Shown here: piece by piece, positions 11,433 through 55,504 of the stretch
Layout of the letters: every line of letters starts with the position of its first letter
Numbering within the stretch: the first letter of the stretch is position 1
Assembly: GCA_050124795.1 (NCBI GenBank)
Contig: JASFEO010000002.1
Location: 36,754-100,753 of the forward strand
Source: Candidatus Pacearchaeota archaeon
GTDB taxonomy: Archaea; Nanobdellota; Nanobdellia; Pacearchaeales; GW2011-AR1
Reading direction: 5' to 3'
Length of the DNA: 64,000 nt
Position numbers and translations under genes: made by a program
The notes under the pieces: generated by a model
The model's input: the letters and a program-made list of their open reading frames with translations, nothing else
What the model was told of the DNA's origin: nothing
Databases searched by the model: none

Positions 11433-11530
11433 TCATCTTGTGCGATTTTCGGCGGAGGCAATTAAAAAAATCGCTTCACCGGAACAAGAAGGGAGATTCC
11501 AAAGAACCGCTTAGGTTCTTTTGATATGCA
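11433..11530 (+). repeat. Dispersed element family B, copy 1 (abuts rpl11 start)
   Basis: 90/98 identical to 55407-55504; stems GCGATTTT/AAAATCGC and AAAGAACC-GCTTA-GGTTCTTT. Confidence 0.9.
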
Positions 11531-12152
11531 AATTAAAATTTTAGCAGAAGGCGCAAGCATGAAACCAGGACCAGCACTTTCTCAAAAACTTGGACCAGCT
11601 GGAATAAACATAGGACAAGTTATCTCAAAAGTTAATGACGCTACAAAAAATTTCAAAGGAATGAAAGTCCCTGTTGAGCTTGATGTTAATCCAACAACAA
11701 AAGATTTTGAAGTCCGGGTTTTCTCACCTCCTGTTTCAGAACTATTAAAAAAAGAATTAAAAATTGAAAAAGGTTCAGGAGAACAGGCGCAGGTTAAAGT
11801 TGCAAATGCCTCAATCGAGGACATAATAAAAGTCGCAATAACAAAATTCCCAAACATGCTCTGCAATAATTTAAAAACTGCTGTTAAAACTGTTGCAGGA
11901 AGTTGCGTAAGCTTAGGAATTTTAATTGAAAACAAAACTGCATCAGAAATTGAACAAGATATTGAAGACGGGAAATTTGATAAAGAAATAAATTCTGAAA
12001 AAACAGAAACTGAAACAGAGAAGAGAAAAGAGCTTGATGAATTTTTTTCTAAAGTAAAAGGTGAGCAGGATAAAGTAATAAAACAAAAAGAAGCAGCTAA
12101 AGCCGCTGAAGCAGAAAAAGATGAAAAGAAAGCTGAAAAAGCTAAGAAATAA
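11526..12152 (+). CDS. rpl11: 50S ribosomal protein L11
   Basis: PGPALSQKLGPAGINIG, GMKVPVEL, PPVSELLKK; charged C-terminal extension. Confidence 0.95.
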   Translation: MQIKILAEGASMKPGPALSQKLGPAGINIGQVISKVNDATKNFKGMKVPVELDVNPTTKDFEVRVFSPPVSELLKKELKIEKGSGEQAQVKVANASIEDIIKVAITKFPNMLCNNLKTAVKTVAGSCVSLGILIENKTASEIEQDIEDGKFDKEINSEKTETETEKRKELDEFFSKVKGEQDKVIKQKEAAKAAEAEKDEKKAEKAKK

Positions 12153-12200
12153 TTTTATAATAAAGTTTTTAAGGAGATATAGGATTGTTTATTTAATATT

Positions 12201-12273
12201 GGGGATATGGGGTAGCCTGGTAGCCTTTCAGGTTTGGGACCTGACGACCGCGGTTCAAATCCGCGTATCCCCA
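12201..12273 (+). tRNA. tRNA-Pro(TGG)
   Basis: Acceptor GGGGATA/TATCCCC; anticodon arm TCAGG-TT TGG GA-CCTGA; GGTTCAAATCC T-arm. Confidence 0.95.
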
Positions 12274-12278
12274 TTTTT

Positions 12279-12301
12279 AATATTCAACTTCGTTGAATAT
12301 T
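12279..12301. terminator. Perfect hairpin right after tRNA-Pro
   Basis: AATATTCAAC-TTC-GTTGAATATT, 10-bp stem followed by T tract. Confidence 0.55.
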
Positions 12302-12324
12302 TTATTTCTGTGCGGTGTTTGCGT

Positions 12325-12423
12325 AACTCAAGAACAATTAATCCTCAAATCCCGAGCAATTACGTGGTAGAAGTCCAAAACATTCAAAATAAAAAACTAA
12401 AAACTTCGTGCGTGATTGGGAGT
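12325..12423 (+). repeat. Dispersed element family A, copy downstream of tRNA-Pro
   Basis: AACTCAAGA..CGAGCAATTACGTGGTAGAAG..AAAAACTTCGTGCG-tga-TTGGGAGT. Confidence 0.8.
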
Positions 12424-12500
12424 TAGTATCCACCTTTATCGCAAATTGAAAATTTTTCTTAACAATAACCTTTAAAAACCAATTTCTAATCTTTATAATA

Positions 12501-12662
12501 ATGGCAAAACAAACTATTTATGGAGATGAGAATCTTAGTTACACAGTTAAGGCAAAAGATATGTCTCCTATAATCGACGGAATCTACATGCACTTGCCTT
12601 CAGAAAGAATCTGCGCTCTTGACAAAAGAATGAAAGACGGAGAATTAAAATTACGAGAGTAA
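12501..12662 (+). CDS. Small hypothetical protein (53 aa)
   Basis: MAKQTIYGDENLSY...KLRE*; TTTAAAA box upstream; ends 6 nt before rpl37ae. Confidence 0.45.
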   Translation: MAKQTIYGDENLSYTVKAKDMSPIIDGIYMHLPSERICALDKRMKDGELKLRE

Positions 12663-12668
12663 ATTAAT

Positions 12669-12887
12669 ATGCCCACTAAATTAAAAAAAACAAAATCAGC
12701 AGGAAGGTTCGGTGCAAAACACGGAATCAGAGTAAGAAAAAAATTAGTTAAAGTAGAGGAAAAACAAAGAATTAAACAAAAATGCCCATTTTGCGAAAAG
12801 CTTGGTGTCAAGAGATTATCAAAAGGAATCTGGCACTGCAAAAAATGCAATAAAAAATTCGCAAGCGGCGCATACACAGTCGATTAA
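12669..12887 (+). CDS. rpl37ae: 50S ribosomal protein L37Ae
   Basis: AGRFGAKHG, CPFC...GIWHCKKC..FASGAY. Confidence 0.95.
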   Translation: MPTKLKKTKSAGRFGAKHGIRVRKKLVKVEEKQRIKQKCPFCEKLGVKRLSKGIWHCKKCNKKFASGAYTVD

Positions 12888-12888
12888 A

Positions 12889-13119
12889 ATGGCAACAGAA
12901 CAACAAATTGAATATGCAAGTGATTTTGTTAGTTGCATTGAGCACATAAAAGAAACTAAGGGGAAGGCTCCTAGATGGGCTACACAATGTAATATTGGGT
13001 ATGCAAGAAGATGTTATGCTAAAATCAACGAGATAAAAAGTATTGTTGTTGGAACTAGTTTAAAAGAATTAAATGCTCTTGAAAAGGAATTCAATTGGGA
13101 GGAAACAAAAATTAATTAA
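12889..13119 (+). CDS. Hypothetical protein inserted between rpl37ae and rpoP
   Basis: 76 aa from ATG 12889; flanked by 13-bp direct repeat ATTAAAATGGCAA. Confidence 0.6.
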   Translation: MATEQQIEYASDFVSCIEHIKETKGKAPRWATQCNIGYARRCYAKINEIKSIVVGTSLKELNALEKEFNWEETKIN

Positions 13120-13120
13120 A

Positions 13121-13258
13121 ATGGCAATTTATAAATGTTTTAAGTGCGGCAAGAAAATCAAGTCAGCAGACCTTGACAAAAGATTTGTCTGTCCTCATTG
13201 CGGAAGCAAGGTTTTCTACAAGCCCCGAACAAAAGTAAAAAAAATAAAAGCAGAATAA
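13121..13258 (+). CDS. rpoP: RNA polymerase subunit Rpo12 (RpoP)
   Basis: YKCFKCGK...CPHCGSKVFYKPR zinc ribbon; synteny. Confidence 0.92.
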   Translation: MAIYKCFKCGKKIKSADLDKRFVCPHCGSKVFYKPRTKVKKIKAE

Positions 13259-13277
13259 TTGCTTTTTGAAATTTAAT

Positions 13278-13607
13278 ATGGTAGAAAAAGATCAAAATCA
13301 AAAAATACAGGAAATGCAAATGCTTGAACAAAATTTGCAAAATATACTTATGCAAAAACAAGCTTTTTCAATGGAACTCAACGAAGCCGCAGCAGCACTA
13401 AAAGAAATTAATTCTGCAAATGACGAAGTCTTTAAAATTGTCGGACAGCTCATGATAAAAACAGACAAAAATAAAATAATTGAAGAACTAACTTCAAAAG
13501 AAAAAATCCTTAGCCTAAGACTCAAGTCAATTGAAAAACAAGAAGAAACAATGACAAAAAAACTCTCTGAATTAAGAGATGAATTTATGAAAGGTATGAA
13601 GAAATAA
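13278..13607 (+). CDS. pfdB: Prefoldin subunit beta
   Basis: Coiled coils flanking EVFKIVGQLMIK; synteny. Confidence 0.9.
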   Translation: MVEKDQNQKIQEMQMLEQNLQNILMQKQAFSMELNEAAAALKEINSANDEVFKIVGQLMIKTDKNKIIEELTSKEKILSLRLKSIEKQEETMTKKLSELRDEFMKGMKK

Positions 13608-13608
13608 A

Positions 13609-13935
13609 ATGACTGAAGTAAATTTAGAAAAACTTGGGAATGCTGAAAGATACTTTTGTAGGCAATGCAAGAGTGTCGGCTTATTGCCAAATTCTATGCC
13701 TCCCAAAGCTAAGGAAAAACATGATTTGCCTTATGATTTTATTATTCCTTTGAGTTGGCCATTTGGTGGAAAAGAAAACATGGAAAATGAAATAAATAAT
13801 ATCATAAAATATGCTAATGAAACCTCACAACTTTTTAGAAAAGTTGCGCACTATGAAGGTTTACATCCAGTTGCAGGAGGGGCTTTAGCAATTTACCTCG
13901 GATTTGAAAATTATTTTGAATCAGGAATGATTTAG
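13609..13935 (+). CDS. Hypothetical protein (ORFan)
   Basis: 108 aa, TAAAATG coupling to pfdB. Confidence 0.55.
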   Translation: MTEVNLEKLGNAERYFCRQCKSVGLLPNSMPPKAKEKHDLPYDFIIPLSWPFGGKENMENEINNIIKYANETSQLFRKVAHYEGLHPVAGGALAIYLGFENYFESGMI

Positions 13936-13986
13936 AATTTAATTATTAATATAAATATTTTTAAATATTAAATCACTAATTTAATT

Positions 13987-14319
13987 ATGGATTATGAAGT
14001 AAACCTTTACAAAGATTCTTTTCAAAGAGAGATAATTCATGGAAAATTTCCGCATCTTCCTGTACCCAGTACAATAGAATTGGGAAGAACATATGATGAG
14101 GTTGCTTTAAAAATACTAAAGACAATCCCAGAAGAAACAAGCAGATTAACTGTTATTAATAATGAAAAATATTTTTCACTAGATGCTTCTAAAAATGAGA
14201 TGTCTCCATACAGTGCAGGAATTTCAATTGAGCGAGAAATTTTTGATTTCATAAAAGACGAATTATTCAAAAAAAGAAAAGACTTGACTTATATATCCCT
14301 GCGGCCAGCTTCTTTCTAA
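13987..14319 (+). CDS. Hypothetical protein (ORFan)
   Basis: 110-aa ORF. Confidence 0.55.
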   Translation: MDYEVNLYKDSFQREIIHGKFPHLPVPSTIELGRTYDEVALKILKTIPEETSRLTVINNEKYFSLDASKNEMSPYSAGISIEREIFDFIKDELFKKRKDLTYISLRPASF

Positions 14320-14519
14320 CATTTATCTCTAAACTTTCTACAACTCTCAACAACTCGATCTTTAAAATCCCTAACAAAACAATATCCTCGTAAAAACTGT
14401 TCTCCCCCAAGACAATCCATAAAAAAAGCATAATTCTTCCATCTTGCTGAATTGTCTTCACGACTCTCACAGGAAATCTCTTCAGGACCTTTGTTCAAAT
14501 ATCTAATTAATCCTTTCAT
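14316..14519 (-). CDS. Hypothetical protein (ORFan)
   Basis: 67-aa ORF, TTTAAGG box upstream. Confidence 0.4.
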   Translation of the reverse strand: MKGLIRYLNKGPEEISCESREDNSARWKNYAFFMDCLGGEQFLRGYCFVRDFKDRVVESCRKFRDKC

Positions 14520-14615
14520 AACTTATTTAGTAATTTCAACCTTAAATAAATTTATACCCGGACATATATACAAAATCCCCGAAATCTTTATAAATATTCA
14601 GTTTATGAAATTAAC

Positions 14616-15005
14616 ATGGTATTTGATAAAATAAAAAAAGCATTCTCAGGCGGGGACATTGATGCAGAAAATGAATATCTTGAAATTGACTTAGGACAAA
14701 AAGAAAAACAAGACAACAAAGTCCTTGTAAAATTATTCACACTAAAAAACTACGACGACGTTAATGAAATCCTAAACTCATTAAGAGAAGGTTACACAAT
14801 CGCGATAATTGATATAAAAGTCTTAAGACAAAAAGATCCAATTGAATTAAAGCGTGCAGTTTCAAAAATTAAAAAAACAACAGATGCTCTTGAAGGTTCA
14901 ATTGCAGGATTCGGAGAAAATACCATTATTGTGACACCTTCATTTGCAAAAATTCACAAGGAATCAGAAAAACCTGCTGAAGAAAAAAAATCTCGCTGGG
15001 ATTAA
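14616..15005 (+). CDS. sepF: Cell division protein SepF
   Basis: LREGYTIAIIDIK, ELKRAVSKIKK, IIVTPSFAKI. Confidence 0.9.
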   Translation: MVFDKIKKAFSGGDIDAENEYLEIDLGQKEKQDNKVLVKLFTLKNYDDVNEILNSLREGYTIAIIDIKVLRQKDPIELKRAVSKIKKTTDALEGSIAGFGENTIIVTPSFAKIHKESEKPAEEKKSRWD

Positions 15006-15054
15006 TTCTAAAAAACTTTAAAACTTCTCTTTACATTTTATTTTGATGAAAAAA

Positions 15055-15321
15055 TTAATAATGCCTCTTTGCATAAATTAAATAAAAAACTAAAGTCATA
15101 TTAAAAGAATAATTTACATACAGCGGAAAATGAGTTATCTTTAAAATCAAATCATCAATTAAAATATAAGTAAATGTAAATACCTCTCCAAATAACCAAA
15201 AAAATAAAAACAACCATGAAAGGTCTCCTGCTTTTTTTGTCCTCCATGTTTTAATTACCTGAGGAACTGCGCAGATTGCAAATAAAAACGCCCCGGCCCA
15301 ACCAACAAAAATATGAATCAT
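15055..15321 (-). CDS. PQ-loop/SemiSWEET-like membrane protein
   Basis: AVPQVIKTWRTKKAGDLS; 3 TM. Confidence 0.8.
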   Translation of the reverse strand: MIHIFVGWAGAFLFAICAVPQVIKTWRTKKAGDLSWLFLFFWLFGEVFTFTYILIDDLILKITHFPLYVNYSFNMTLVFYLIYAKRHY

Positions 15322-15380
15322 AAATTTCTATTATTCTCTAATTTAAAAAGTTATTTAAATAAATCCCTTTTTTTATTCTA

Positions 15381-15992
15381 ATGAAAACCTTATTCATACC
15401 TGCAAAATCAAAACAAGAAATTAATAAAAAAGAATTATTAATAATTTCTAAATCTCTCCCAAAAGAAATCGCAATATTTTATTCAATTCAATATTTTAGT
15501 CAGGCAAAAGAAATCAAAAAAATATTATCTAAAAAAAAAATAATTTCATTTAAACAAGTTTTAGGTTGCTCAAAACCAAAAATTTCAAAAAACACAAAAG
15601 CAATCCTCCTAATTTCCGACGGAAAATTCCATGTAACTTCAATTGCACTTGAAACAAAACTTCCAACATTTATTTTTATAAACAATAAACTAACAAAAAT
15701 AAGTGATGAAGAAATTAAAAATTTAGGAAAAAGAAAAAAAGCTGCATTTGTGAAATTTCTCAATGCAGAAAAAATTGGCATTTTAGTTTCAATAAAACCC
15801 GGCCAGGAAAACTTAGAACAAGCAATGAAGCTAAAAAGCAAATTAAAACAAAAAGATTCTTACTTATTTTTATCTAATAATATAAACACAAATGAATTTG
15901 AAAATTTCCCGCAAATTCAAAGTTGGGTAAACACAGCCTGCCCGCGAATGGATATGAATGAAAAAGGAATTGTTAATATTTATGATATTTAA
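15381..15992 (+). CDS. dph2: Diphthamide synthesis protein Dph2 (short form)
   Basis: QVLGCS, DGKFH, SIKPGQ, NTACPR. Confidence 0.88.
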   Translation: MKTLFIPAKSKQEINKKELLIISKSLPKEIAIFYSIQYFSQAKEIKKILSKKKIISFKQVLGCSKPKISKNTKAILLISDGKFHVTSIALETKLPTFIFINNKLTKISDEEIKNLGKRKKAAFVKFLNAEKIGILVSIKPGQENLEQAMKLKSKLKQKDSYLFLSNNINTNEFENFPQIQSWVNTACPRMDMNEKGIVNIYDI

Positions 15993-16005
15993 TTTTACAA
16001 AAAAT

Positions 16006-16404
16006 TTAAATCTTAGTAATACTAAACACACTTCTTAAAGCCACAATAATCGTCGCGGGAATAAATAAAACCAAAAGCGCCCCAAAAATTTCCTGGCCCA
16101 TTAAACCAATTCTTGTTATTCCAAGTAAAGAACCCCCAAACCTGTCAACAAAACCATCAAGTCCGAATTTGCTCACAATAACTAAAACTGTTCCTGCTAA
16201 TAAAAAAGTATTTATGTCATCATCTCTGACGTCAACAAAACCAATAATAATCCCCATTAATAATAAAATAACATAAAACAACTGATTAAAACTAACAAAA
16301 ACATCAATTGAAAAAGACTTCACAACAGCGAGCACAATCGCCACAACAACACCTGTCAAAAACGCCCATGCCCCGAGTGAATTCTCTTTTGATCTTATCG
16401 CCAT
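16006..16404 (-). CDS. Hypothetical 4-TM membrane protein
   Basis: Start at MAIRSKENSLGAWAF; hydrophobic helices. Confidence 0.7.
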   Translation of the reverse strand: MAIRSKENSLGAWAFLTGVVVAIVLAVVKSFSIDVFVSFNQLFYVILLLMGIIIGFVDVRDDDINTFLLAGTVLVIVSKFGLDGFVDRFGGSLLGITRIGLMGQEIFGALLVLFIPATIIVALRSVFSITKI

Positions 16405-16511
16405 CTTAAAATAACAGAATATTAATATATAAATATTTCGAAGGAGAATTAAAATATATATTCCAGAATAGAAAACTTTATAAACCATAGTAACTCCGGA
16501 ATGATTACAAA

Positions 16512-18173
16512 ATGAAAGCTAAAAATTTAACTTTGATAAGTTTAAGCATTTTAATAAGTTTAGTTCTAATGACTCTGGCAAGTGCAACTTTAACAATCTC
16601 ATCTCTTGACTATCCGACAAGTGTTGATGATATTGAAGGCTCATTCATATTCACTTTTAATATAACTGATACTTCAATAACCCCTATAAGTGTTACTTTT
16701 GCTGATTCTACAATTTCTTTTGGTTCTATTTCAATTACTGATTTAACTAATGAAGATTTAACAACTGCAAAACAAATAACAGGGGCAATTTCTAATTTTG
16801 CAGATCAAGGTGGGAACACAATGACTATCACAATTGTTGCAAATGAAACAGAAGACCCAACTAATTTAGATTCTGAAACTTTTTCAGTAAACATTAATTT
16901 AACTATTCCTTCAGAAGTAACAGAGTGTGAATCAACTGGAAACCCCGGAAGTGATTTAAGAATCAAAGAAATTGAATTTACAAACAAAGGAATGAAAATT
17001 GGAGACACAACAAAAGAATTTGGGGATGATGATGCATGGTTCCCTTTGGATGATATTGAAGTCGAAATCACAATTGAAAACAATGGAAACGACGACATAG
17101 ATAATATTGAAGTTAATTGGGGATTATGGGATACCGAAGCAAACGACTGGATAATCGAATTAGATGATGAAAAAGATTTTGACTTAAAAGATGATGATGA
17201 AGAAACATTGGCAATCTCATTCAACCTTGAAAGTTCATTAGATATTGACTTAGAAGATTTAGAAGACGGAAACCATTACAGATTTTATGTAATTGCAGAA
17301 GGAGAAAACACAGACATTGACGCAGATGTTTGTGAATATGATTATGAAGATACAGAAATAGTAATTGAAAAAGACTTTGTAGTCTTGGATAATTTTGAAT
17401 TTCCTGAAAGTGTTTCATGCGCAGATGAAGTTCAGATAATCGCAGACACCTGGAATATCGGAGACAGAGACCAGGATGATGTTTATATAAGAATTTATAA
17501 CACAGAACTTGGAATCAACAATAAAATCGTGGACATCGGCGACATAGATGCATTTGACCATGAAGACTTAAACACAATAATTCAAATTCCGGAAGATGCA
17601 AAAGAAAAAATATACCAGCTTAACTTTGAGGTATATGATGAAGATGATGATATTTATGAAACAGACTTTGACAATGATGACTCAAGTTTCTACATTCTCT
17701 TAAATGTTGCAAGCTGCAAAACCCCGGCAAAAGCAATTGTTTCAGCCACACTTGAATCAGGAGGGGTCGCAGGAGAAGAATTAGTTGTAAGAGCAACAAT
17801 TGTAAATTCAGGAAGTGATACAACTTATAATTTGAACTTAGCAGGATTCAGCACATGGGCAGATTCAGGAAACTTTGATTCAAACACAGTAACTCTTGGA
17901 AAAGGTGAACAAAAAGATGTTCTAGCTACATTCCTTGTTAAAGAAGATGCTTCAGGTGAGCAAACTTTTGATATTGAAGTTTTATCAGACGGAGATTTTG
18001 TTTTAACTCAGCCAGTTGCAATAACAATCGAAGAAGCACCAAAAGGATTTTTATCAGGAATAACCGGAAATGCAATTGGAGGCGGAAATACATACTTGTG
18101 GATAATCGGCGCTCTAAATGTAATCCTTGTTGTTATAATTATAATTGTTGCAATAAGAGTTGCAAGAAAATAA
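16512..18173 (+). CDS. Acidic surface / putative S-layer-associated protein with C-terminal TM anchor
   Basis: Signal peptide, Asp/Glu-rich Ig/CARDB-like segments, GITGNAI motif then TM and RVARK tail. Confidence 0.75.
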   Translation: MKAKNLTLISLSILISLVLMTLASATLTISSLDYPTSVDDIEGSFIFTFNITDTSITPISVTFADSTISFGSISITDLTNEDLTTAKQITGAISNFADQGGNTMTITIVANETEDPTNLDSETFSVNINLTIPSEVTECESTGNPGSDLRIKEIEFTNKGMKIGDTTKEFGDDDAWFPLDDIEVEITIENNGNDDIDNIEVNWGLWDTEANDWIIELDDEKDFDLKDDDEETLAISFNLESSLDIDLEDLEDGNHYRFYVIAEGENTDIDADVCEYDYEDTEIVIEKDFVVLDNFEFPESVSCADEVQIIADTWNIGDRDQDDVYIRIYNTELGINNKIVDIGDIDAFDHEDLNTIIQIPEDAKEKIYQLNFEVYDEDDDIYETDFDNDDSSFYILLNVASCKTPAKAIVSATLESGGVAGEELVVRATIVNSGSDTTYNLNLAGFSTWADSGNFDSNTVTLGKGEQKDVLATFLVKEDASGEQTFDIEVLSDGDFVLTQPVAITIEEAPKGFLSGITGNAIGGGNTYLWIIGALNVILVVIIIIVAIRVARK

Positions 18174-18232
18174 TTCTTACTTTTATTTTTCTCGAATTAA
18201 AATTATTTAAACCCTGATTTATTAAATAGTCC

Positions 18233-18772
18233 ATGAACAAAAAAGAAAAAGAGGTTTATGGAATTCTCGCAAGATATCTTTTAATAATTTTTGCAGCCGC
18301 CTCAAACCTTTTTATTTTTTACTATATATTCACACCATTAACTGTTTATCATGTTTATTTTTTACTTCAGATTTTTTTAGATGTAAAATTGTCCGGTAAT
18401 GTAATCTCCCTCGGCCATTATGCAATATGGATAATAAAAGCATGCATTGCAGGTTCTGCATATTATCTTTTATTTATTTTAAATCTGTCAATTCCAAAAA
18501 TAAATTTAAAAAAAAGATTAAAGATGATTTCTTTTTCATTTTTGGTTTTGTTAGCCGCAAATATTTTAAGAATAATAATTCTTGTTTTGCTTCTTGGTTC
18601 TTTTTGGTTTGACTTTACCCACAAACTTTTCTGGAATCTACTAAGCACAATTTTTGTCGTCGGAATTTGGTTTCTTGAAGTAAAATTATTTAAGATAAAA
18701 AAAATCCCTTTTTATGATGATATAAAAATCCTTTATAAAAACTCTTTCTTTAAGAAATCTAAGAGAAAATGA
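18233..18772 (+). CDS. Archaeosortase/exosortase-family protein (pacearchaeosortase-like)
   Basis: Multi-TM with Cys (IIKACIAGSAYYLL), Arg (NILRI), His (FTHKLFW); adjacent to TM-anchored surface protein. Confidence 0.8.
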   Translation: MNKKEKEVYGILARYLLIIFAAASNLFIFYYIFTPLTVYHVYFLLQIFLDVKLSGNVISLGHYAIWIIKACIAGSAYYLLFILNLSIPKINLKKRLKMISFSFLVLLAANILRIIILVLLLGSFWFDFTHKLFWNLLSTIFVVGIWFLEVKLFKIKKIPFYDDIKILYKNSFFKKSKRK

Positions 18773-19392
18773 TACCTGAATTTTTTTCAAACCTGATTGA
18801 TTATCTCCTTGATTTTTCTCTTTCAGTTGGTTATATTGGAACTTTTATCTGGATGCTAATTGAAAGTTCATTTGTTCCATGGCCAAGTGAATTATTATTA
18901 ATTCCTCAGGGAGCTTTGGTTGCGCAGGGAAAATTAAATTTCTTAGGAGTTTTAATTGCAGGAATTTTAGGAAGTCTTGCAGGAGCATTAGTAAATTATT
19001 TACTTGCATTTTATCTCGGAAGAAAAACTATTAATAAACTTATCTTTAGATATGGAAGATTTCTTTTTATTGATGAAAAAAAAATAATAAATTCTGATGG
19101 TTATTTTAAAAAGCACGGAAACATAACAACATTTGTTGGAAGATTAATTCCTGGAATAAGGCAGTTAATTTCACTTCCTGCTGGTTTTTCAAAAATGAAT
19201 CTTTCTAAATTTTGTTTATTCACTTCATTGGGCGCGGGAATTTGGGCGACCGCATTAATTGCAATCGGCTTCTTTTTTGGAAGCAGTATTGATCCGGCTC
19301 TAAAAAAAGAAATAACTTTTCTGGCGGTGATTTTTTCTTTTTTAATCATGTTAATTTATTATTTAACTAAAAAAAGAAAATCTAAAAACTAG
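18769..19392 (+). CDS. dedA: DedA family membrane protein
   Basis: ESSFVPWPSE, GRLIPGIRQLISLPAG. Confidence 0.92.
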   Translation: MIPEFFSNLIDYLLDFSLSVGYIGTFIWMLIESSFVPWPSELLLIPQGALVAQGKLNFLGVLIAGILGSLAGALVNYLLAFYLGRKTINKLIFRYGRFLFIDEKKIINSDGYFKKHGNITTFVGRLIPGIRQLISLPAGFSKMNLSKFCLFTSLGAGIWATALIAIGFFFGSSIDPALKKEITFLAVIFSFLIMLIYYLTKKRKSKN

Positions 19393-43159: not shown

Positions 43160-43160
43160 T

Positions 43161-47323: not shown

Positions 47324-47405
47324 CGCCTCGAGCAGGAATTGAACCTGCGCGTCCCGAAGGACCTCGGTTAGCAACCGAGTGCAATAACCACTATGCGATC
47401 GAGGC
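47324..47405 (-). tRNA. tRNA-Ser(GCT)
   Basis: GCCTCGA/TCGAGGC acceptor; CTCGG-TT GCT AA-CCGAG; long variable arm. Confidence 0.95.
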
Positions 47406-47502
47406 TTGAACTTATTAAAAATATCTGGCTTAAAAAGATTGTTATTTCAATTAATCTCGATTTATCCATTATCTTTTTAAATTATTTTTTATTCTTAATC
47501 AT

Positions 47503-48735
47503 ATGAAAAAAGAGGTTGAATTAAAAGAGGCTTATGAAAAATCAATTCAAATTTTAAAATCATGCTCAACTCCTTTTGGATTTCGCGCCGCCCAAATAAG
47601 CGAAGGACCTTATTCAAGAATATGGGGAAGAGACAGCATGATTTGTTCAATTGCTGCATTAACAACTAATGATAAATCTTTAATCAAACAAGTAAAAAAA
47701 TCCTTAAAGACACTTTTAAAATTTCAGCACAAACAGGGCCAGATTCCAAGCAACGTTGATATGAAAACAAAAAGAGTAAGTTACGGCTGGTCTGCAGGAA
47801 GAATCGACGCTCTTCTTTGGTTTTTAATTGGCTTTTCTCAATACGTCAAGCGAACTCATGACAGAAGATTTTTAAAAAAACATTATGAAGCTTATAAAAA
47901 AGCATTCAGGCTCGCTCAGGTTTATGAATTTAATAATAGGGGATTTATTTATGTCCCAAAAGGGGGCGACTGGGCAGACGAATTCATCCAGGAAGGTTAT
48001 GTTCTCTACGACGAACTTCTTTATTATCGCGCGTTTGAGGAATTTATTTCATTAAGAAAAAAAATATACAAGAAAAATGATTTCTATGAAAAAAAGAAAT
48101 CAGAAATCAGAAAAAAAATACTAACAAATTTTTTGCCCAATAAATCCAAAAAAAATTCAGAATCTGTTTATAATAAAATCTTATTTGAAAAAACATTGCA
48201 AAAAAAGAAATATCACACACCTTATCTTTTGCCGTTTTTTTCTCCGTCCTCATATGGCTTTAGATTTGATGGTTTTGCAAACACTCTTGCGATTTTATTT
48301 GGGATATTAGATAAAAAAAATGAAAAAAAATTATTAAAATATGTCTTCAACAATTTTGGAAAAAAAACAAATTACCTTCTTCCTGCATTTTCTCCTCCGA
48401 TTACAAAAAAGGATCCTGAATGGCAGCACTTGATTGAAAACTACTCAATCAAATTTAAAAATAAACCTCATGAATATCACAACGGAGGACTGTGGCCGGT
48501 TGTAACAGGTTTTTTTGCTGCAGCAATTTCAAAGAAAAATCCTAAAGAAGCAAGAAATTATCTTTTGGGAATCAACAAGGCAAATTCGCAAAACGGAAAA
48601 TCTTCATGGGACTTTTATGAATATTTAAACAGCAAAAACTTCAAAGCAAAGGGAACAAAAAAACAAGCATGGAGTGCAGCAGCAGGAATAATCGCCTACA
48701 ACTCTGTAATAAAAAAGGAAGCTTGTTTTATATGA
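47503..48735 (+). CDS. Glycoside hydrolase, GH100/alkaline-neutral invertase-like
   Basis: WGRDS, DALLWF, GGDWAD, YHNGGLWP, QAWSAA. Confidence 0.8.
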   Translation: MKKEVELKEAYEKSIQILKSCSTPFGFRAAQISEGPYSRIWGRDSMICSIAALTTNDKSLIKQVKKSLKTLLKFQHKQGQIPSNVDMKTKRVSYGWSAGRIDALLWFLIGFSQYVKRTHDRRFLKKHYEAYKKAFRLAQVYEFNNRGFIYVPKGGDWADEFIQEGYVLYDELLYYRAFEEFISLRKKIYKKNDFYEKKKSEIRKKILTNFLPNKSKKNSESVYNKILFEKTLQKKKYHTPYLLPFFSPSSYGFRFDGFANTLAILFGILDKKNEKKLLKYVFNNFGKKTNYLLPAFSPPITKKDPEWQHLIENYSIKFKNKPHEYHNGGLWPVVTGFFAAAISKKNPKEARNYLLGINKANSQNGKSSWDFYEYLNSKNFKAKGTKKQAWSAAAGIIAYNSVIKKEACFI

Positions 48736-49553
48736 AAAAAATTCTTATTGCTACAGATCTCGACAGAACACTTCTCCCAAATGGAAATCATAAATTAAGC
48801 AAGGGCGCAATAAATTCATTTAAAATATTAATAAAAAAAACAAATAAAAAAATAATTTTAATCTATATTACAGGAAGAAATAAAACTTTAATTTTGCAGG
48901 CGATAAAAAAATACAATTTGCCAAAACCTGAATTTTGCATTTCAATGGTCGGAAGTGTGATTTACAAATATGAAAAAAATTCTCTTATCGAGGACAAAAA
49001 CTGGGAAAACCATTTAAAAAAATCTTCTAAAAATTTTAATTCTGAAAAAATAATTTCTTCTTTAAAAGATATAAAACAATTAAAATTGCAGCCAAAAAAA
49101 TATCTCAATGATTTCAAAGTTAGTTATTATCTAAAAAATAAATCATTATTAAAAAGCACTTTAAAAAAAATAAAATTAGAATTAAAGAAAAATAAAATTA
49201 ATGCAAAGGTGATTTATAGTTTTGATGTTAATAGAAAAATTGGCTTAATTGATGTCATGCACAAAAATGCAAATAAATTGTCAGCACTTTATTTCTTGCT
49301 TGATAAATTAAAAATCAAAAAACAAAACATTGTTTATTGCGGAGACTCTGGAAATGATTTGGAAATTTTTAAATCAGGAATTAAATCTATTTTAGTAAAA
49401 AATGCGTCATATGATTTTAAAGAAAAATTAAAAAAAGAAATTAAGAAAAACAAAAAAATGAAAATTTATTTTGCAAGGGGGAATTTCAAAAATCTAAACG
49501 GAAATTATGTTTCAGGAATTCTTGAAGGAATTAACCACTACAAATTTGTTTAG
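48732..49553 (+). CDS. HAD-IIB hydrolase, sucrose-phosphate phosphatase-like
   Basis: ATDLDRTLLPNG, ITGRN, GDSGND, GILEG; start at MKKILIATD overlapping GH stop. Confidence 0.82.
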   Translation: MKKILIATDLDRTLLPNGNHKLSKGAINSFKILIKKTNKKIILIYITGRNKTLILQAIKKYNLPKPEFCISMVGSVIYKYEKNSLIEDKNWENHLKKSSKNFNSEKIISSLKDIKQLKLQPKKYLNDFKVSYYLKNKSLLKSTLKKIKLELKKNKINAKVIYSFDVNRKIGLIDVMHKNANKLSALYFLLDKLKIKKQNIVYCGDSGNDLEIFKSGIKSILVKNASYDFKEKLKKEIKKNKKMKIYFARGNFKNLNGNYVSGILEGINHYKFV

Positions 49554-49953
49554 TCGGCCAAACATATTCCAAATTATCTGGAACTTCTTTTGAAAACTTA
49601 AAATAAAACTCTTTATCTTTTCTTAACAAATTACTTTTGTGTGAATCATGAAATTTTTTATCCCCCATCCATTTAGGTAAAATTATTTTTCCTTCTATAA
49701 TTTCTAATTTCATTGTGTTTTTGTAACCTTTTGAAATCCATAATTTAACTGCTTTATTAAAATAAAGTTTAAGTGCATTTTCATAACCAGCCCACATTTT
49801 AACAGCAGGATGATTTTTCCAGCCTTGCTTTTTTGTTCGTTTTAGTAAAATATTCAGAATTTGAAATGCTTCAACACGTTGTTTTCCAAGTCTTCGACTA
49901 TCAAGAACTTTTAGTGACTTTTTCAGATTTGGATATGGCATGAATGTTTGCAT
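49531..49953 (-). CDS. Pyrimidine-dimer DNA glycosylase-like (MSMEG_6728 family)
   Basis: MQTFMPY, LDSRRLGKQRVEAFQI, NHPAVKMW, SHKSNLLRKD, YVWP. Confidence 0.85.
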   Translation of the reverse strand: MQTFMPYPNLKKSLKVLDSRRLGKQRVEAFQILNILLKRTKKQGWKNHPAVKMWAGYENALKLYFNKAVKLWISKGYKNTMKLEIIEGKIILPKWMGDKKFHDSHKSNLLRKDKEFYFKFSKEVPDNLEYVWPTKQICSG

Positions 49954-50003
49954 AAAAATATCTTTGGATAATCTGATTAAAAAGTTTTTGATTGCTTAGA
50001 AAA

Positions 50004-50537
50004 TTATTCTAAATAAAATCCAATTATGAGAATTAATATGTTTACTATGACAATTAAGATATAAATTAAATTTCTTACAAATTCTCTGCCACTAATTTTA
50101 TTTTCTAATTCTTTTTTTTCACCAATCAATTTATTATGTGCCTCAATAAATTCTTTTTCTTTTCTCTCTCGTTCTTCAAGGAGTTCTTTATCACTTAGCG
50201 AATTCAAATAGGTTAGATTAATGTCTCCTTTTGAGAGGGCATTAATATTTGCTAAGACTATTTCTCTTGAGAGAGTTTCAAAGAATGTAGTGTCTGCTGA
50301 ATCATTTAAGGCAATTACAGAATTTTTTGTTATATCTGCAATAGCTAATTTTATTTTTTGGTTTGAAGTTAATAAGAGGTTCACTTCATCATAACCTTTT
50401 CTTTCATCAATATTATTTAATTGTTCATTGATCTTAGATAAATCCATATCTATAGAATATAGGATGATACAAGAGAGAATTAATAGGATAATTGATAGAG
50501 TAATACGTACTTTTTTTAGAGATGATATCTTTTTCAT
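50004..50537 (-). CDS. Hypothetical 2-TM coiled-coil protein
   Basis: Start at MKKISSLKK (upstream part of track ORF is tRNA). Confidence 0.6.
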   Translation of the reverse strand: MKKISSLKKVRITLSIILLILSCIILYSIDMDLSKINEQLNNIDERKGYDEVNLLLTSNQKIKLAIADITKNSVIALNDSADTTFFETLSREIVLANINALSKGDINLTYLNSLSDKELLEERERKEKEFIEAHNKLIGEKKELENKISGREFVRNLIYILIVIVNILILIIGFYLE

Positions 50538-50548
50538 TTGAATAAAAA

Positions 50549-50624
50549 TAGCGAGGGCAGGATTTGAACCATGCGACCTCCGGGTTATGGGCCCGACGAG
50601 CACTCCAGACTGCTCCACCTCGCT
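50549..50624 (-). tRNA. Initiator tRNA-Met(CAT)
   Basis: A1-U72, GGG/CCC in anticodon stem, CAT anticodon. Confidence 0.92.
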
Positions 50625-50664
50625 ATGTTAATTGATAATTTATCCAACTTTTAAAACTTTCTAA

Positions 50665-50736
50665 TGCCCCTGCGAAGATTCGAACTCCGATCGCCTCGAC
50701 CGCAACGAGGTATTCTATCCATTAAACTACAAGGGC
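50665..50736 (-). tRNA. tRNA-Arg(GCG)
   Basis: CCTCG-TT GCG GT-CGAGG; GTTCGAATC. Confidence 0.92.
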
Positions 50737-50780
50737 ATAAACAATTCTTAATTAAAACAATATTTAACTTTTATTATTCA

Positions 50781-50860
50781 CGCCCGCAGCAGGAATTGAA
50801 CCTGCGAGCCAAAAAGGCCACGATTTCCAGTCGTGTGCAATACCACTATGCGATGCGGGC
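50781..50860 (-). tRNA. tRNA-Ser(GGA)
   Basis: CACGA-CT GGA AA-TCGTG; variable arm; GCCCGCA/TGCGGGC acceptor. Confidence 0.94.
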
Positions 50861-50884
50861 ATAGCAATTTACAACCTGTTAAAT

Positions 50885-51259
50885 TTAAAAATCTTTAAAC
50901 ATCCCCAAATCATTAGCAAGTGAACCAATCTTTTTTCTAATCTCCTTTCTTTGCTTATGTAATCTTGCAAGTTCACTAAGTCTTCTTTCTTCCTCTCTTT
51001 GATTTGTCATTTTTTGATTAACTCTCATTAAAAGACCAGATTGCAGTCTTATATCTAATCCATCAGAAGATCTAAAGAAATGGATTGCTTCTCTCCACCT
51101 ACCATATCTATTAAGATATTCTTCACTATAGATATTCCCTCTGATAAATATCTTCCCTTCAGGAGTTTTAATATCATAAAATTTTTCAAAATCTAAAGGG
51201 AGTCCTCCGAGTTTGAGATTAGAATCTATTTGCAATTCCTGATAATTTTTCTGGCTCAT
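50885..51259 (-). CDS. Hypothetical protein
   Basis: 124-aa ORF with TTATATA box upstream. Confidence 0.55.
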   Translation of the reverse strand: MSQKNYQELQIDSNLKLGGLPLDFEKFYDIKTPEGKIFIRGNIYSEEYLNRYGRWREAIHFFRSSDGLDIRLQSGLLMRVNQKMTNQREEERRLSELARLHKQRKEIRKKIGSLANDLGMFKDF

Positions 51260-51358
51260 GTTCTTTAATAGTTATATCACTATATAAGTTTTTATATAAT
51301 AATCTTCTCAAAACTAAAACATCCAAATCTTTTTATACTCAAAATTTTTATTTTTTTA

Positions 51359-52030
51359 ATGAAAGAATTTGAACTTGGAATTGACGACGCAGGAAGAGGC
51401 CCTGTAATCGGCCCAATGGTTCTCGCAGGATGTTTAATTGACAAAAATACCGCAGCAAATTTTAGAAAACTCGGTGTAAAAGATTCTAAAGACTTAACCC
51501 ACAAAAGAAGAGAGTTGTTAGTTGGAAAAATAAAAGAGCAAGCTGAAACTTTTGAAATTGTTCTTGCAACACCAAATGAAATCGACGGAAACTTTAATGG
51601 CGGCTCAAACCTAAACAAGCTTGAAGCAAAAAAAATGGCAGAAGTAATAAACAAAATAAACAAAGGTTATGCAAAAATAAAAGTCATAATCGACTGCCCC
51701 TCTGTCACAATCTCTGTATGGACTGACTACTTAAAAACCCACATAAAAAATTTATCAAACTTGGAAATTATTTGCGAGCATAAAGCAGATAAGAACCACA
51801 TCTCTGTTTCTGCAGCCTCAATAATCGCAAAGCACATCCGCGAAATTGAAATGACAAAACTCAAAGAAAAATACGGACCTGAAATCGGCTCAGGATATTG
51901 CTCAGACCCTTTAACAATAAAATTCCTAGAAAAACACGCAATAAAACATGAACACGATGGAATCTTTAGAAAAACCTGGGCAACATGGAAAACAATTTGC
52001 CAGAATATAAATCAGAGAAAGTTGTTTTGA
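51359..52030 (+). CDS. rnhB: Ribonuclease HII
   Basis: GIDDAGRGPVIGPMV, GVKDSK, HKAD..VSAASIIAK, GSGY.SDP. Confidence 0.95.
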   Translation: MKEFELGIDDAGRGPVIGPMVLAGCLIDKNTAANFRKLGVKDSKDLTHKRRELLVGKIKEQAETFEIVLATPNEIDGNFNGGSNLNKLEAKKMAEVINKINKGYAKIKVIIDCPSVTISVWTDYLKTHIKNLSNLEIICEHKADKNHISVSAASIIAKHIREIEMTKLKEKYGPEIGSGYCSDPLTIKFLEKHAIKHEHDGIFRKTWATWKTICQNINQRKLF

Positions 52031-52034
52031 AAAT

Positions 52035-52484
52035 ATGTTTGAAATTACACCGCCAAAAACCATAGAAAAAAAATCCGATGGAGGTTATGATTTTTTTCAT
52101 GAAGAATTTTTCAAATTAATTGACAAGTTAGAGAATCAAATGGCTTCTTTAAGATTTTTTAACGCCCTTTATGATGAATGTTTAGGAGTAATTAATTGTT
52201 ATGGGATAAAAGTTGATTTTTTAGGAAGAGAAATTGCATTTTCAGTAGAAGACACTAACTTAGGATTGGGATTATATTTAGAACATCAAAAGAAATTTTT
52301 TTCTAGAGAAATAATTATAGATTTTAGTAATGAAAGTGATGGTATAGAAAGAATTCTTTGCATGAGTAAAATAAAAGATAATTTCTTTTCTCAATTAAGG
52401 CCTTATGGACTCCATTTTCAAAATGCCCGCGGGGATATATTAAAAGAACACAATTATGACAAACTTTTTGAAGAAGATAATTAA
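52035..52484 (+). CDS. Hypothetical protein (ORFan)
   Basis: 149-aa ORF between rnhB and smc. Confidence 0.55.
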   Translation: MFEITPPKTIEKKSDGGYDFFHEEFFKLIDKLENQMASLRFFNALYDECLGVINCYGIKVDFLGREIAFSVEDTNLGLGLYLEHQKKFFSREIIIDFSNESDGIERILCMSKIKDNFFSQLRPYGLHFQNARGDILKEHNYDKLFEEDN

Positions 52485-52547
52485 ATCTCATTTTTTAAAA
52501 TCTAATATTAATTAAAATTTTAAAAACCCCAACTCCCTTTCTTCTTT

Positions 52548-55406
52548 ATGACCTTTATAAAAAAATTAGTGATGCATGGTTTCAAAAGTTTTGCAAGAAA
52601 AACAGAACTCCCATTTACCCCCGGAATCAATGTTATCCTTGGACCAAATGGTTCAGGAAAAAGTAATGTTTCAGATGCTCTGTGTTTTGTCCTCGGTAGA
52701 TTAAGCATAAAATCAATGCGCGCAGCAAAAGCAAAAAATTTAATTTTCCTTGGAACAAAAGTTGCAGCACCATCAAAAGAAGCTTCTGTTGAAATTGTTT
52801 TTGATAATTCTTCAAATAGTTTCACAATAGAAGAAAAAGATGTTTCAATAAAAAGAATTGTAAGGCGCAACGGCCAAAGCATTTACAAAATAAATAATCA
52901 AACAAAAACACGCCAGGAAGTTTTAAGTTTATTAGCTCAGGCAGGAATTGACCCAAATGGTTTTAACATAATCCTGCAGGGAGAAATCCAGAACTTTGTA
53001 AAAATGATGCCAGAGGAGCGAAGAAAAGTAATTGAAGAAGTCGCAGGAATTTCAATTTATGAATCACGAAAAGAAAAATCATTAAAAGAATTAAATAAAA
53101 CTGAGGAGAGATTAAAAGAAGTCAATGCGATTCTTAGAGAGAGAACTGCTTATTTAAATAATTTAGAAAAAGAAAGACAGCAGGCATTAAGATTTAAAAA
53201 AATTGAAGAAGATATAAAAAAATTCAAGGCAAGTATTATTTTTCAGAATTTAAAATTAAAGAAAAAAGATTTGGAAGTTATCGGGGGAAATATTAATAAA
53301 AAAAATAATGAAAAAGAAAAAATAAAAACAGGCATAAAAAATTTAGAAAAGAAAATATTTGAGAACAATTCAAAAGTCGATTCAATCAACCAGACTATAA
53401 AAAAGCAAACAGGATATGAACAGGAAAAATTAAATCAGGAAATCGCCAACTTAAGAGCAGAACTTGCAGGCTTAAATGTGAATTTATCAAACCTTGAAAA
53501 TAAATTATCTTCTATAAAAAAGGAAAGAGAAGAATCAAAAAATTCAATTGAAGAAAATGAAATTTCAATTAGGGAACTAAAAAAAGAATCCCCGACTTTG
53601 GCAAAAAAAGAAAAAGAGGTGGAGGCAAAAAAACAAAGACTTGAAGAACTTGAAAAAATCAGAAAAAAGTTTTACATGACAAAGTCTGAATTAAAATCTT
53701 TAAGAGACAGAATTAGTGATAAAAAAACTCTTCTTCAAAATTACACAGATGAATCAGATTTTTTAATTAAACAAATTGAAAAAATTTCTCTTGAGTTGTT
53801 TGACAAAAAAACAAACAAGGAAAAACTTGAAGACTTAAAATTTTCATTAAAAGAAAAAAAAGAATTATTAGAAGAACTCAGGCGCGAAGAAATTAATTTA
53901 GAAAAAACTTCTTCAACAAATGAATATGAAATTGACAAGCAAAAAAAATTAATCGACACTGTTTCAAAAATGGATATTTGTCCCGTGTGCAAAAATAAAA
54001 TCACAAACCAACATGTTCATTCAATAAATAAAGAAACAAATGAAAAAATTTCCTCATTAAATAATGAAATAAAAAACTCTGATTCAAAACTAAATTTAAT
54101 CTACCAAAAAAAAGATATTCTCGATAAAGATATTGAAAGTTTAACTTCTGAAATTCAAAAAAGAGAATCTGATCTCATGAACTTATTAAATATTAATGAG
54201 AAAAAAAATCAAATTAAATCTTTGCATGAAAAAATTAATATCGCAAAAGAAGAATTAACAGAACTTGAAAAAATCGAGAAAAAATTAAAAACTAATTTTG
54301 ATGAAAATTCAAATATTGAAACAAAATATGAAACACTTGCAGTTGAAGTCCAGGAAGTCTCTTTGCGGACAAAAGAAAATTTAAATTCAGAAGTTTCATT
54401 TAAAGAGCGCGAACTTGAGCGAGCAAAAATTTCTCTAAAAGAACTTGCAAGAAATTATGAGGATTTTTCTGAAGAGTTAAAGGAAGTAAAAAAGAAATTA
54501 GAAGAAAAAGAAAAATCATTAAAATCAAAAAAAGAAAAAGAAGAAAAACTTTCCATGGAGTTTCAAAAATTAATTAGTGAGCGGGATTCTTATTCAAAAG
54601 AAGCCAGAGAAATTGAATTAAAAATTTCAGGCCAGAATAATTTAATCTATAATATTGAACAGGAAATTAATAACATGAAAATTGAAAATGCAAGAGTCTC
54701 AGCAGAAATTGAAAACTTTGAAACTGAAATGCTCGGGTTTCCAAATATTGAAATAATAAAACAAAATAAAAATATTTTATCTGAAAGGTTGGCAAAGGCG
54801 CAGGAAATAAGCTCCAGAATTGGTTCAGTAAATATGCGTTCTCTCGAAGTTTATGACTCAGTAAAAAAAGAGTATGACACAATAAGCGAGAAAGTCGAAA
54901 TAATTGAAAAAGAAAAATTAGGAATTTTAAAAATCATAAATGAAATTAATATTAAGAAAAAGAAAACTTTTTTGAAAACCTTAACAGAACTTGATGAAAT
55001 TTTTTCAAGAAACTTTTCCCAATTAAATGCAAAAGGAGTTGTGTCTTTAGAACTTGAAAACAGAAAAAGCCCATTCGACGACGGAGTAAACATAATTGTA
55101 AAAACAGGACATGGAAAATATTTTGATGTTAAAAGTCTTTCAGGAGGAGAACAAACTTTAGTTGCGCTATCCTTAATTTTTGCAATACAGGAATTAAAAC
55201 CATATTACTTTTATATTTTAGATGAAATCGACGCAGCACTTGACAAAAGAAACTCAAGTCGCCTTGCAGACTTACTAAAAAAATACATGCAAAAAGGACA
55301 ATACATTGTAATCAGCCATAACGACGAAGTAATCGGAAATGCAACAAATCTTTATGGAATTAGTATGCATGATGGTGTCTCGAAAACCGTAAGCCTTAAA
55401 GTTTAA
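52548..55406 (+). CDS. smc: SMC-family chromosome segregation ATPase with central CxxC
   Basis: GFKSF, GPNGSGKSN, LSGGE, LDEIDAALD; long coiled coils; CPVC at aa 478-481. Confidence 0.88.
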   Translation: MTFIKKLVMHGFKSFARKTELPFTPGINVILGPNGSGKSNVSDALCFVLGRLSIKSMRAAKAKNLIFLGTKVAAPSKEASVEIVFDNSSNSFTIEEKDVSIKRIVRRNGQSIYKINNQTKTRQEVLSLLAQAGIDPNGFNIILQGEIQNFVKMMPEERRKVIEEVAGISIYESRKEKSLKELNKTEERLKEVNAILRERTAYLNNLEKERQQALRFKKIEEDIKKFKASIIFQNLKLKKKDLEVIGGNINKKNNEKEKIKTGIKNLEKKIFENNSKVDSINQTIKKQTGYEQEKLNQEIANLRAELAGLNVNLSNLENKLSSIKKEREESKNSIEENEISIRELKKESPTLAKKEKEVEAKKQRLEELEKIRKKFYMTKSELKSLRDRISDKKTLLQNYTDESDFLIKQIEKISLELFDKKTNKEKLEDLKFSLKEKKELLEELRREEINLEKTSSTNEYEIDKQKKLIDTVSKMDICPVCKNKITNQHVHSINKETNEKISSLNNEIKNSDSKLNLIYQKKDILDKDIESLTSEIQKRESDLMNLLNINEKKNQIKSLHEKINIAKEELTELEKIEKKLKTNFDENSNIETKYETLAVEVQEVSLRTKENLNSEVSFKERELERAKISLKELARNYEDFSEELKEVKKKLEEKEKSLKSKKEKEEKLSMEFQKLISERDSYSKEAREIELKISGQNNLIYNIEQEINNMKIENARVSAEIENFETEMLGFPNIEIIKQNKNILSERLAKAQEISSRIGSVNMRSLEVYDSVKKEYDTISEKVEIIEKEKLGILKIINEINIKKKKTFLKTLTELDEIFSRNFSQLNAKGVVSLELENRKSPFDDGVNIIVKTGHGKYFDVKSLSGGEQTLVALSLIFAIQELKPYYFYILDEIDAALDKRNSSRLADLLKKYMQKGQYIVISHNDEVIGNATNLYGISMHDGVSKTVSLKV

Positions 55407-55504
55407 TCATGCTGTGCGATTTTCGGCGGAGGCAATTGAAAAAATCGCTTCGCAGGGACAGGAAGGGAGATTCTAAAGAACCGCTTAGGTTCTTTTGATA
55501 TGCA
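55407..55504 (+). repeat. Dispersed element family B, copy 2
   Basis: 90/98 identical to 11433-11530. Confidence 0.9.

Follow-up and report, generated by a model that had tools for sequence, protein, structure and literature searches.

How does a hairpin repeat without an open reading frame (ORF) of its own come to lie at the end of one essential gene and at the start of another in a minimal genome? The window analysed here raises this question. It comprises 64,000 nt of contig JASFEO010000002.1 (assembly GCA_050124795.1; positions 36,754-100,753, forward strand) from a Candidatus Pacearchaeota archaeon, whose genome (G000; 1.06 Mb, 90% complete) carries a hairpin element family that we call B. 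One window copy precedes rpl11 and the other sits at the end of smc. Our answer is that B is very probably mobile at the DNA level and translated rather than spliced. The evidence favours a DNA insert that folds into three hairpins and is non-coding over a regulatory RNA fixed in place.

A dispersed three-hairpin insert

As an earlier note made from the letters alone had described, the two copies (11433-11530 and 55407-55504) lie on the same strand and share 90 of 98 bases. Their spacing is 43,974, and a BLAST search of the host genome gives the match an E-value of 1.5e-35. That note was also right that the stems GCGATTTT/AAAATCGC and AAAGAACC/GGTTCTTT are the same in both copies, with all eight differences outside them, and that both copies end in TGATATGCA; its ATG starts rpl11 in copy 1, and in copy 2 it supplies the Met of a duplicated smc tail. 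The genome-wide BLASTN search that it recommended returned this pair and one further copy, G000:C23:8732-8652(-), which ends GATATGG ahead of a rhodanese gene and has a second repeat module nested within its last hairpin. Scanning the host genome with a family hidden Markov model (HMM) added no copies to these three. The description as a 98-bp two-hairpin element holds in that the repeat is real, but what is conserved falls short of 98 nt (the core spans about 11442-11528 and 55416-55502) and includes a third hairpin, which lies in the middle and varies. The proposed TATGCA target did not survive tabulation of the flanks: the 3' flanks vary and ATG alone recurs, while the CA that follows it in both copies belongs to codons of the flanking genes (Gln of rpl11, His of smc) and lies outside the element.

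Three hairpins make up the core of about 85 nt, namely H1, whose loop carries the conserved GAGGCAA, H2, which varies, and H3, which ends in TTTTCA or a variant of it:

11442..11528, + strand: element core of copy 1, ending in the rpl11 ATG; fold supported by covariation
11442-11449/11467-11474, + strand: H1 of copy 1, loop with near-invariant GAGGCAA
about 11475-11491, + strand: H2 of copy 1, the variable hairpin
11501-11508/11514-11521, + strand: H3 of copy 1
55416..55502, + strand: element core of copy 2, with H1 at 55416-55423/55441-55448, H3 at 55475-55482/55488-55495 and the ATG at 55500-55502

Among 59 distinct copies, 97% of cells paired and two-sided changes occurred in 9 of 15 pairs, a result that 0 of 500 shuffles reached, in an alignment that was fitted to the model and holds related copies; slid controls scored lower than the real pairing. 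In the stems, G-U exceeded A-C (16 vs 4), which favours folding of the element strand as written. Copies can harbour other repeats within the H1 loop or within H3; the C23 copy is an example. An Rfam search with B, at the gathering score and at E up to 10, gave no match, and three B patterns and one smc-tail pattern had 0 matches each in IMG/VR. No description of this element was found in the literature searched, which was mainly openly accessible.

To follow the family, we built a covariance model from 11 copies and scanned 151 genomes of the Pacearchaeota-type family. B was present in 48 of them, with 1 to at least 24 matches per genome; these counts are lower bounds, as 28 candidates per genome were scored. 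This distribution, together with presence and absence at orthologous smc and rpl11 sites, supported the earlier note's view of a dispersed, non-autonomous and apparently mobile hairpin element. The alternative by which that note would have been refuted, a conserved cis-regulatory RNA fixed at its loci, does not fit sites that are patchily occupied among relatives. Between themselves the window copies have an identity of 0.92; with any other copy it does not exceed 0.81, and with the rpl11 copy of genome G054 it is 0.70. More generally, mean identity within genomes was 0.73 (108 pairs among 85 copies) compared with 0.68 under shuffled labels, and 0 of 1000 shuffles reached the observed value.

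A second hairpin repeat, the GTGGTAGAAG module, occurs in the window at 12353-12425 (+) and 47275-47206 (-) and has about 14 matches in G000. It lies mostly 3' of tRNA genes with a duplicated tRNA end, also nests inside B, and in one case (C3:77523) forms a tRNA-Gln intron.

Duplicated tails at the end of smc

At smc the insert measures 135 bp and is composed of a gene tail with its stop codon, the segment TCATGC and the core, after which a second tail follows:

52548..55406, + strand: smc, host gene of copy 2; TIGR02169/TIGR02168 are the best matches, under their curated cut-offs
55365..55406, + strand: working smc tail (MHDGVSKTVSLKV*), with codons rare elsewhere in smc; probably brought by the element
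55407..55412, + strand: guide-like segment TCATGC, directly 3' of the stop codon and complementary to 55502-55507 (closing helix P0)
55500..55541, + strand: displaced second smc tail, same peptide, fitting host codon use; probably the original end

The two tails encode one peptide, yet 8 of 13 codons differ silently (10 nt), and this shared peptide has a Thr found in 0 of 39 empty sites. Of 50 loci with smc ends, 39 were single-tailed, 10 were double-tailed and one was ended by the contig end. The double-tailed loci hold B in four cases by HMM, a B variant in one case by eye, unrelated short inserts in four, and in one a gene with an exact 72-nt duplication.

Long direct duplications are not confined to smc. 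They flanked 21 of 143 copies, as against 2 of 425 swapped flanks, and also occurred at other gene ends and at one gene head (opposite strand). Their length ranges from none to about 50 nt and is bounded by gene boundaries. Neither a short target duplication of fixed length nor terminal inverted repeats at the ends of the consensus core were found, so the anatomy of a MITE (miniature inverted-repeat transposable element), which the earlier note had suggested, is not supported. Codon differences in 19 B-associated tail or head pairs were silent in 75 cases and replacements in 10 (78 and 8 with the L100 frame corrected), the pairs within L076 and within L097 not being independent of one another; the neutral expectation for the silent share is about 23%. 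A DGR-like origin (diversity-generating retroelement, DGR) was checked on the tail sequences, and the differences were not adenine-specific.

Which of the two tails is the older one? The mean scores were -0.87 for downstream tails, -0.95 (sd 0.19) for empty sites and -1.07 for working tails. The downstream tail matched the empty-site tails and host codon use better on average, and clearly so in the host genome, with exceptions at L137, L143 and L147. This suggests, from comparison of the tail sequences, that the working tail arrives with the element and that the old one is displaced. Codon 9, a Ser codon, is TCN in 4 of 12 working tails and in 2 of 39 empties. At L150, L066, L110, L116 and L340 the tails are identical. 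L076 contains tandem cassettes with three synonymous tails, and tandem clusters also occur at L097 and L144. Arrival of a working end with displacement of the old one is described for WHO elements and for Glomus mORFs (PMC7282813, PMC3630166).

Several other inserts were observed at the same place. Unrelated inserts of 25-100 nt with a duplicated tail lie at the smc site of L137, L147, L155, L161, L339, L364, L148 and L130, and the site therefore appears to be a shared hotspot. In L149 (G124:C7) a 302-aa gene, Fic-like by eye, stands between two exact 72-nt copies of the smc end, with no B. In sequencing run X3, over window positions 54612-55539, a relative's smc (about 86% identical) runs into unrelated letters past its stop; a tail-like piece lies on a separate contig of similar depth, which may point to a larger element at the same smc site.

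Guide-like pairing with the 3' flank

The segment behind the smc stop codon pairs with the start of the second tail. At least six contiguous pairs were present in 8 of 9 B-filled smc sites and in 2 of 61 single-tail loci, a set in which some genomes occur twice and one of the two positives looks like a remnant. The guide is 6-9 nt long, and in copy 2 of the window the helix has 6 bp. Moreover, the guide tracks variants of the target: GTG faces CAC in L361 and GTC faces GAC in L143. The predicted fold (L150) is a four-way junction closed by the guide helix. Among smc inserts other than B, one of six passed the same fixed-register pairing test, and shifted pairing was visible by eye in some. Pairing between 5' and 3' flanks was also stronger than between swapped pairs across 95 copies: it averaged -5.6 kcal/mol, as against -4.1 kcal/mol, and reached -8 kcal/mol or lower in 25% of cases, as against 7%. 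The stronger pairing was concentrated in duplicated sites and tRNA introns and is specific to the site.

Placement at start codons and in reading frames

Globally, 81 of 143 distinct copies end 0-5 nt ahead of the ATG of an ORF, compared with 2.8% of random positions. This count took ORFs of at least 40 codons (at least 25 where the locus end cuts); end-calling failed for a few copies, and some loci occur in several genomes. Among the host genes, as judged by eye from the N-termini, are those of ribosomal proteins, RpoP, SRP54, PheT, EF-2, TBP, Smc and Mre11. The remaining 62 copies include copies in tRNA introns (antisense where seen), at tRNA 5' ends, at gene-end duplications and in frame within coding sequences, as well as reverse-oriented copies at gene, tRNA and 16S ends. 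In L204 and L236, B adjoins a duplicated tRNA-Glu 5' end, and a short insert separates the two end copies.

Copy 1 illustrates how an operon joint is occupied:

10748..11203, + strand: spt5, upstream gene of the operon joint (TIGR00405)
11196..11399, + strand: orphan ORF between spt5 and the element, no Pfam match; its ATG overlaps the spt5 stop
11401..11514, + strand: upstream ORF (uORF) of 37 codons, beginning 1 nt past the upstream stop, running through the element and stopping in the H3 loop
11526..12152, + strand: rpl11, host gene of copy 1 (NF002232)

The ATG of the orphan ORF lies where rpl11 starts in empty relatives. The 37-codon ORF, which the earlier note had reported, is indeed present; its stop sits 11 nt before the rpl11 ATG, and it likely keeps translational coupling to rpl11. 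Thirty relatives were compared at this joint: 13 were empty (spt5 stop overlapping the rpl11 ATG or at most 7 nt from it), 4 contained B by HMM, 3 partial B by eye, 8 an orphan ORF only and 2 other short inserts. Differing orphan ORFs are wedged into the joint in L285, L289, L292, L297, L301, L305, L306 and L307, several of them starting at the old overlapping ATG. The 9-nt lead-in of copy 1 is identical to that of copy 2 at 7 of 9 positions and does not pair with rpl11, which is consistent with descent of copy 1 from an smc-type copy.

Coupled uORFs are not restricted to rpl11. Among 20 copies with a uORF tied to an upstream stop, 18 had the uORF stop between -17 and +12 nt from the new ATG, whereas unused frames, taken as control, stopped in that range in 4 of 40 cases; none of the coupled uORFs fuses to the gene. 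This placement indicates translation of the insert and selection for continued coupling, a constraint that would not act on a spliced intron. In addition, nine sense copies lie in frame within Pfam-recognised genes, namely LigD_N (two), Trm5, RsmB, topoisomerase, methyltransferase, ERCC4 (two) and Ogt, and four of the nine fall inside the Pfam stretch; a tenth candidate, L040, stood outside the Pfam scan. The in-frame copies likewise argue against splicing. Absent from the earlier note were the replacement tail, the guide-like pairing with the 3' flank and the part that the uORF plays in coupling.

The search for a mobilising enzyme

The host genome encodes one DGR-type reverse transcriptase (RT), two Y1 transposases and two XerA/IntI-like recombinases (C3, C5); no match to TnpB or to an IS110 transposase was found in it. 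An autonomous partner with the same ends, which the earlier note had hoped to find, did not emerge: searched with the whole or half model, B stood at the ends of 0 of 31 TnpA, 26 TnpB, 30 RT and 2 recombinase loci. At TnpA and TnpB loci it was seen just as separate nearby copies (L191, L194) and as one weak, chance-level match (L175). Co-occurrence with B, with overlaps counted by hand, was at the chance level: about 15 were expected and 18 observed for TnpA, about 5 and 4 for TnpB, and about 18 and 22 for RT. The link to REPINs or to IS200/IS605 elements proposed in the earlier note is therefore unsupported. Furthermore, the host Y1 genes have ends unrelated to B, and B has no GTAG foot, which together with repeats flanking a RAYT gene we take to define REP/REPIN-RAYT systems.

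Several other modules were noticed along the way. The window contains a DGR-like module at 6509-7557 (+) with no adjacent RT: a variable region (7063-7143) in the target gene, an Rfam RT-16 RNA (7261-7479) and a template region (7477-7557), the two regions differing mainly at adenines. A DGR-type RT gene at 1084-1797 (+), its start apparently missing, has a near-copy at G000:C2:818-1533 and carries an in-frame insert that resembles the tRNA-associated module, with a (TC)n run. On G000 contigs C23, C24, C29-C31, C3 and C5, a 27-member repeat family lies beside the two XerA/IntI-like genes and resembles integron arrays.

A proposed mechanism and its alternatives

We propose that B may move as a folded single-stranded cassette. 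The mobile unit would consist of a front segment and the core, and a recombinase acting in trans would insert it. Where the target is a gene end, this front segment would combine a replacement copy of the gene tail with the short guide. After excision as a circle, pairing of the guide with the beginning of the cassette's own tail would rebuild a short duplex that matches the target sequence. Insertion at a matching site would then leave the gene intact, because the new tail would do the work of the old one, which is pushed downstream. Where the target is an operon joint, the unit would instead begin with an ATG-started leader that preserves coupling, with the core supplying a new ATG at its end. 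Looser insertions at ATG-like sites would survive solely at start codons, in tRNA introns, at gene ends or in frame. The circle-duplex step would have its parallel in the folded attC sites of integron cassettes, and B itself is not an attC. As a whole, this mechanism has in our judgement somewhat less than an even chance of being right.

A number of results weigh against it. Between genomes, copies that share a locus have an identity of 0.75 (24 pairs), comparable to the value of 0.73 within genomes, so the identity pattern partly reflects vertical inheritance of old shared insertions together with conversion; and as copies and genomes are related, the statistics overstate the case. No excised circle or strain-level empty allele was seen, and among the DNA contigs of five sequencing runs there was no joint lacking the element that belonged to this genome; such joints as did turn up came from other organisms. 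No enzyme was linked to B, which does not lie beside the two XerA/IntI-like recombinases of the host. An ORF-bearing long form was absent from 52 metagenome loci (in 44 of these the H1 5' half came within 4-7 nt by pattern, 7 showed a variant H1 by eye and one was cut by the contig end), from the 30 smc-tail matches inspected out of 58 in 401 genomes, and from the other smc sites examined. G-U pairs in the guide helix, for which the element strand was better in 10 cases, worse in 5 and tied in 3, suit RNA at least as well as DNA. Most start-codon copies have neither a guide nor a long duplication, so that a single mechanism for all classes is an assumption. Finally, B lacks what we take to be the form of attC, a single long imperfect hairpin with R and L boxes of the type RYYYAAC/GTTRRRY.

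Other routes to the same arrangement have to be considered. Homing by gene conversion, in which a nuclease acting in trans cuts empty alleles and repair copies a recoded, resistant tail along with the element, would make B an ORF-less remnant or passenger. The layout is the same as that of WHO at FBA1 (PMC7282813) and of Glomus atp6/cox2 (PMC3630166), and the scores that place downstream tails nearer the empties than working tails, the TCN codons at Ser 9 and the tandem clusters would all suit it. No nuclease gene was seen between the tails at any B-filled site, however, the identical tails at five loci would not resist cleavage, and homing would render the co-varying guide helix superfluous while leaving the spread to dozens of unrelated loci unexplained; we consider it unlikely. 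Retro-mobility would have a cloverleaf-like element RNA reverse-transcribed by the host's DGR-type RT and joined at the 5' or 3' ends of RNAs or at nicked sites. A fixed 3' end with a variable 5' end would be expected of such a process, and the 3' ends adjoin ATG starts, tRNA 5' ends or, in reverse, gene, tRNA and 16S ends; the predicted four-way junction, the one-strand G-U bias and the RT in the host genome point the same way. Against this, RT co-occurs with B at chance, B is not part of any of the 30 RT loci, the tail differences show no adenine specificity, and a fresh target duplication should decay randomly rather than silently, which makes this route rather improbable as well.

A cis-regulatory leader RNA, consisting of uORF and hairpins and copied among the operons of translation genes, would explain why many hosts are translation or replication genes, why uORF stops are under selection and why H3 adjoins the ATG. 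Such a leader should not be missing at most orthologous sites, have no Rfam match, or stand before unrelated genes, in reverse, in tRNA introns and within coding frames, and we regard it as very unlikely. The derivation favoured by the earlier note, a PATE- or REPIN-type relative of IS200/IS605 moved by a Y1 transposase, is in our view highly improbable: the absence of terminal inverted repeats, the sub-terminal hairpins, the TCAA end of many copies and the two Y1 genes speak for it, but B bears no likeness to the ends of the TnpA and TnpB loci, its co-occurrence with them is at chance, and its flanks vary instead of offering a fixed 4-5-nt target. PATEs, moreover, make no duplications (PMC3119063), while B has long ones. 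As for a mini-intron that the tRNA splicing machinery excises from RNA or that splices itself, some copies do lie in tRNA introns, and the GTGCG...AT ends of B resemble those of group II introns. The in-frame copies, selected uORF frames and replaced tails would all be needless for a spliced element, inspection of mRNA sites by eye revealed no bulge-helix-bulge, and none of the Rfam intron models matched, so this explanation is hardly credible. Group II ends, hammerhead, K-turn and bulge-helix-bulge motifs were each checked by eye against their known features and rejected.

If the cassette mechanism were extended to its furthest consequence, DPANN archaea would hold an undescribed form of programmable integration, with ORF-less cassettes of about 135 bp that carry a 6-9-nt guide to the target in cis and a recoded gene end or leader. 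Essential genes would stay intact because of the recoded end or leader carried, and the several unrelated hairpin cores at the same smc site would mean that a shared trans enzyme reads structure, not sequence. We offer this extension as a speculation that is probably wrong in its full form.

Significance and comparison with known systems

Transposase-free repeats are otherwise common; B occupies the densest and most essential parts of a minimal genome, namely ribosomal operons, smc and tRNAs. The host is spared in three ways: by a new start codon with a coupled uORF, by a replacement gene end and by in-frame read-through. The guide that covaries with its target provides a direct experimental handle on site choice, and if a trans enzyme were found, the system would be a very compact one for site-directed insertion. 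Through B, lineages could also swap gene ends, and tRNA introns and operon inserts could arise in DPANN archaea.

B is a repeat family separate from the integron-like arrays of its host, and it differs from attC in its multi-branch three-hairpin fold; no link to an integrase was seen. Nevertheless, B has several likenesses to integron cassettes (10.1101/2022.02.06.479319, 10.1101/2022.09.11.507474): tandem arrays of the cassette type, a folded site that is closed when it pairs with the cassette start, insertion outside canonical sites, and sites more alike within a genome. Such cassettes can enter genomes outside att sites (10.1101/2022.09.11.507474). With the PATEs and other small mobile repeats of Haloquadratum (PMC3119063), B shares an archaeal host, the lack of a transposase, of terminal inverted repeats and of an ORF, near-terminal palindromes and repeat-in-repeat nesting. 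PATE palindromes match IS605-type ends and come with no duplications, whereas B resembles none of the local IS200/IS605 ends, favours ATG and can bring along a replacement gene end and a guide.

Palindromic, GC-rich insertions into AT-rich genomes are also represented by Rickettsia palindromic elements (RPEs) and intragenic MITEs (PMC10969869) and by yeast mitochondrial GC clusters (PMC4478555). Like B, these are described in the accessible text as inserting in frame, merging modules and having an unknown mobiliser; the same text describes neither start-codon rebuilding with a coupled uORF nor guided tail replacement, both of which B has. WHO elements at FBA1 (PMC7282813) and fungal mitochondrial mORFs (PMC3630166) match B in placing the replacement 3' end upstream and the displaced native end downstream, in the silent divergence between ends and in their tandem clusters. 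They encode endonucleases and span kilobases, whereas B measures about 135 bp including the tail, has no ORF, occupies many loci and forms a guide helix that matches the target. No ORF was found between the tails of B-filled smc sites, the one long insert, in L149, being without B. Taken together, B works most like a transposase-free mobile repeat of the PATE, RPE or GC-cluster kind combined with the end-replacing layout of WHO elements and mORFs, although it departs from each of these in a defining feature.

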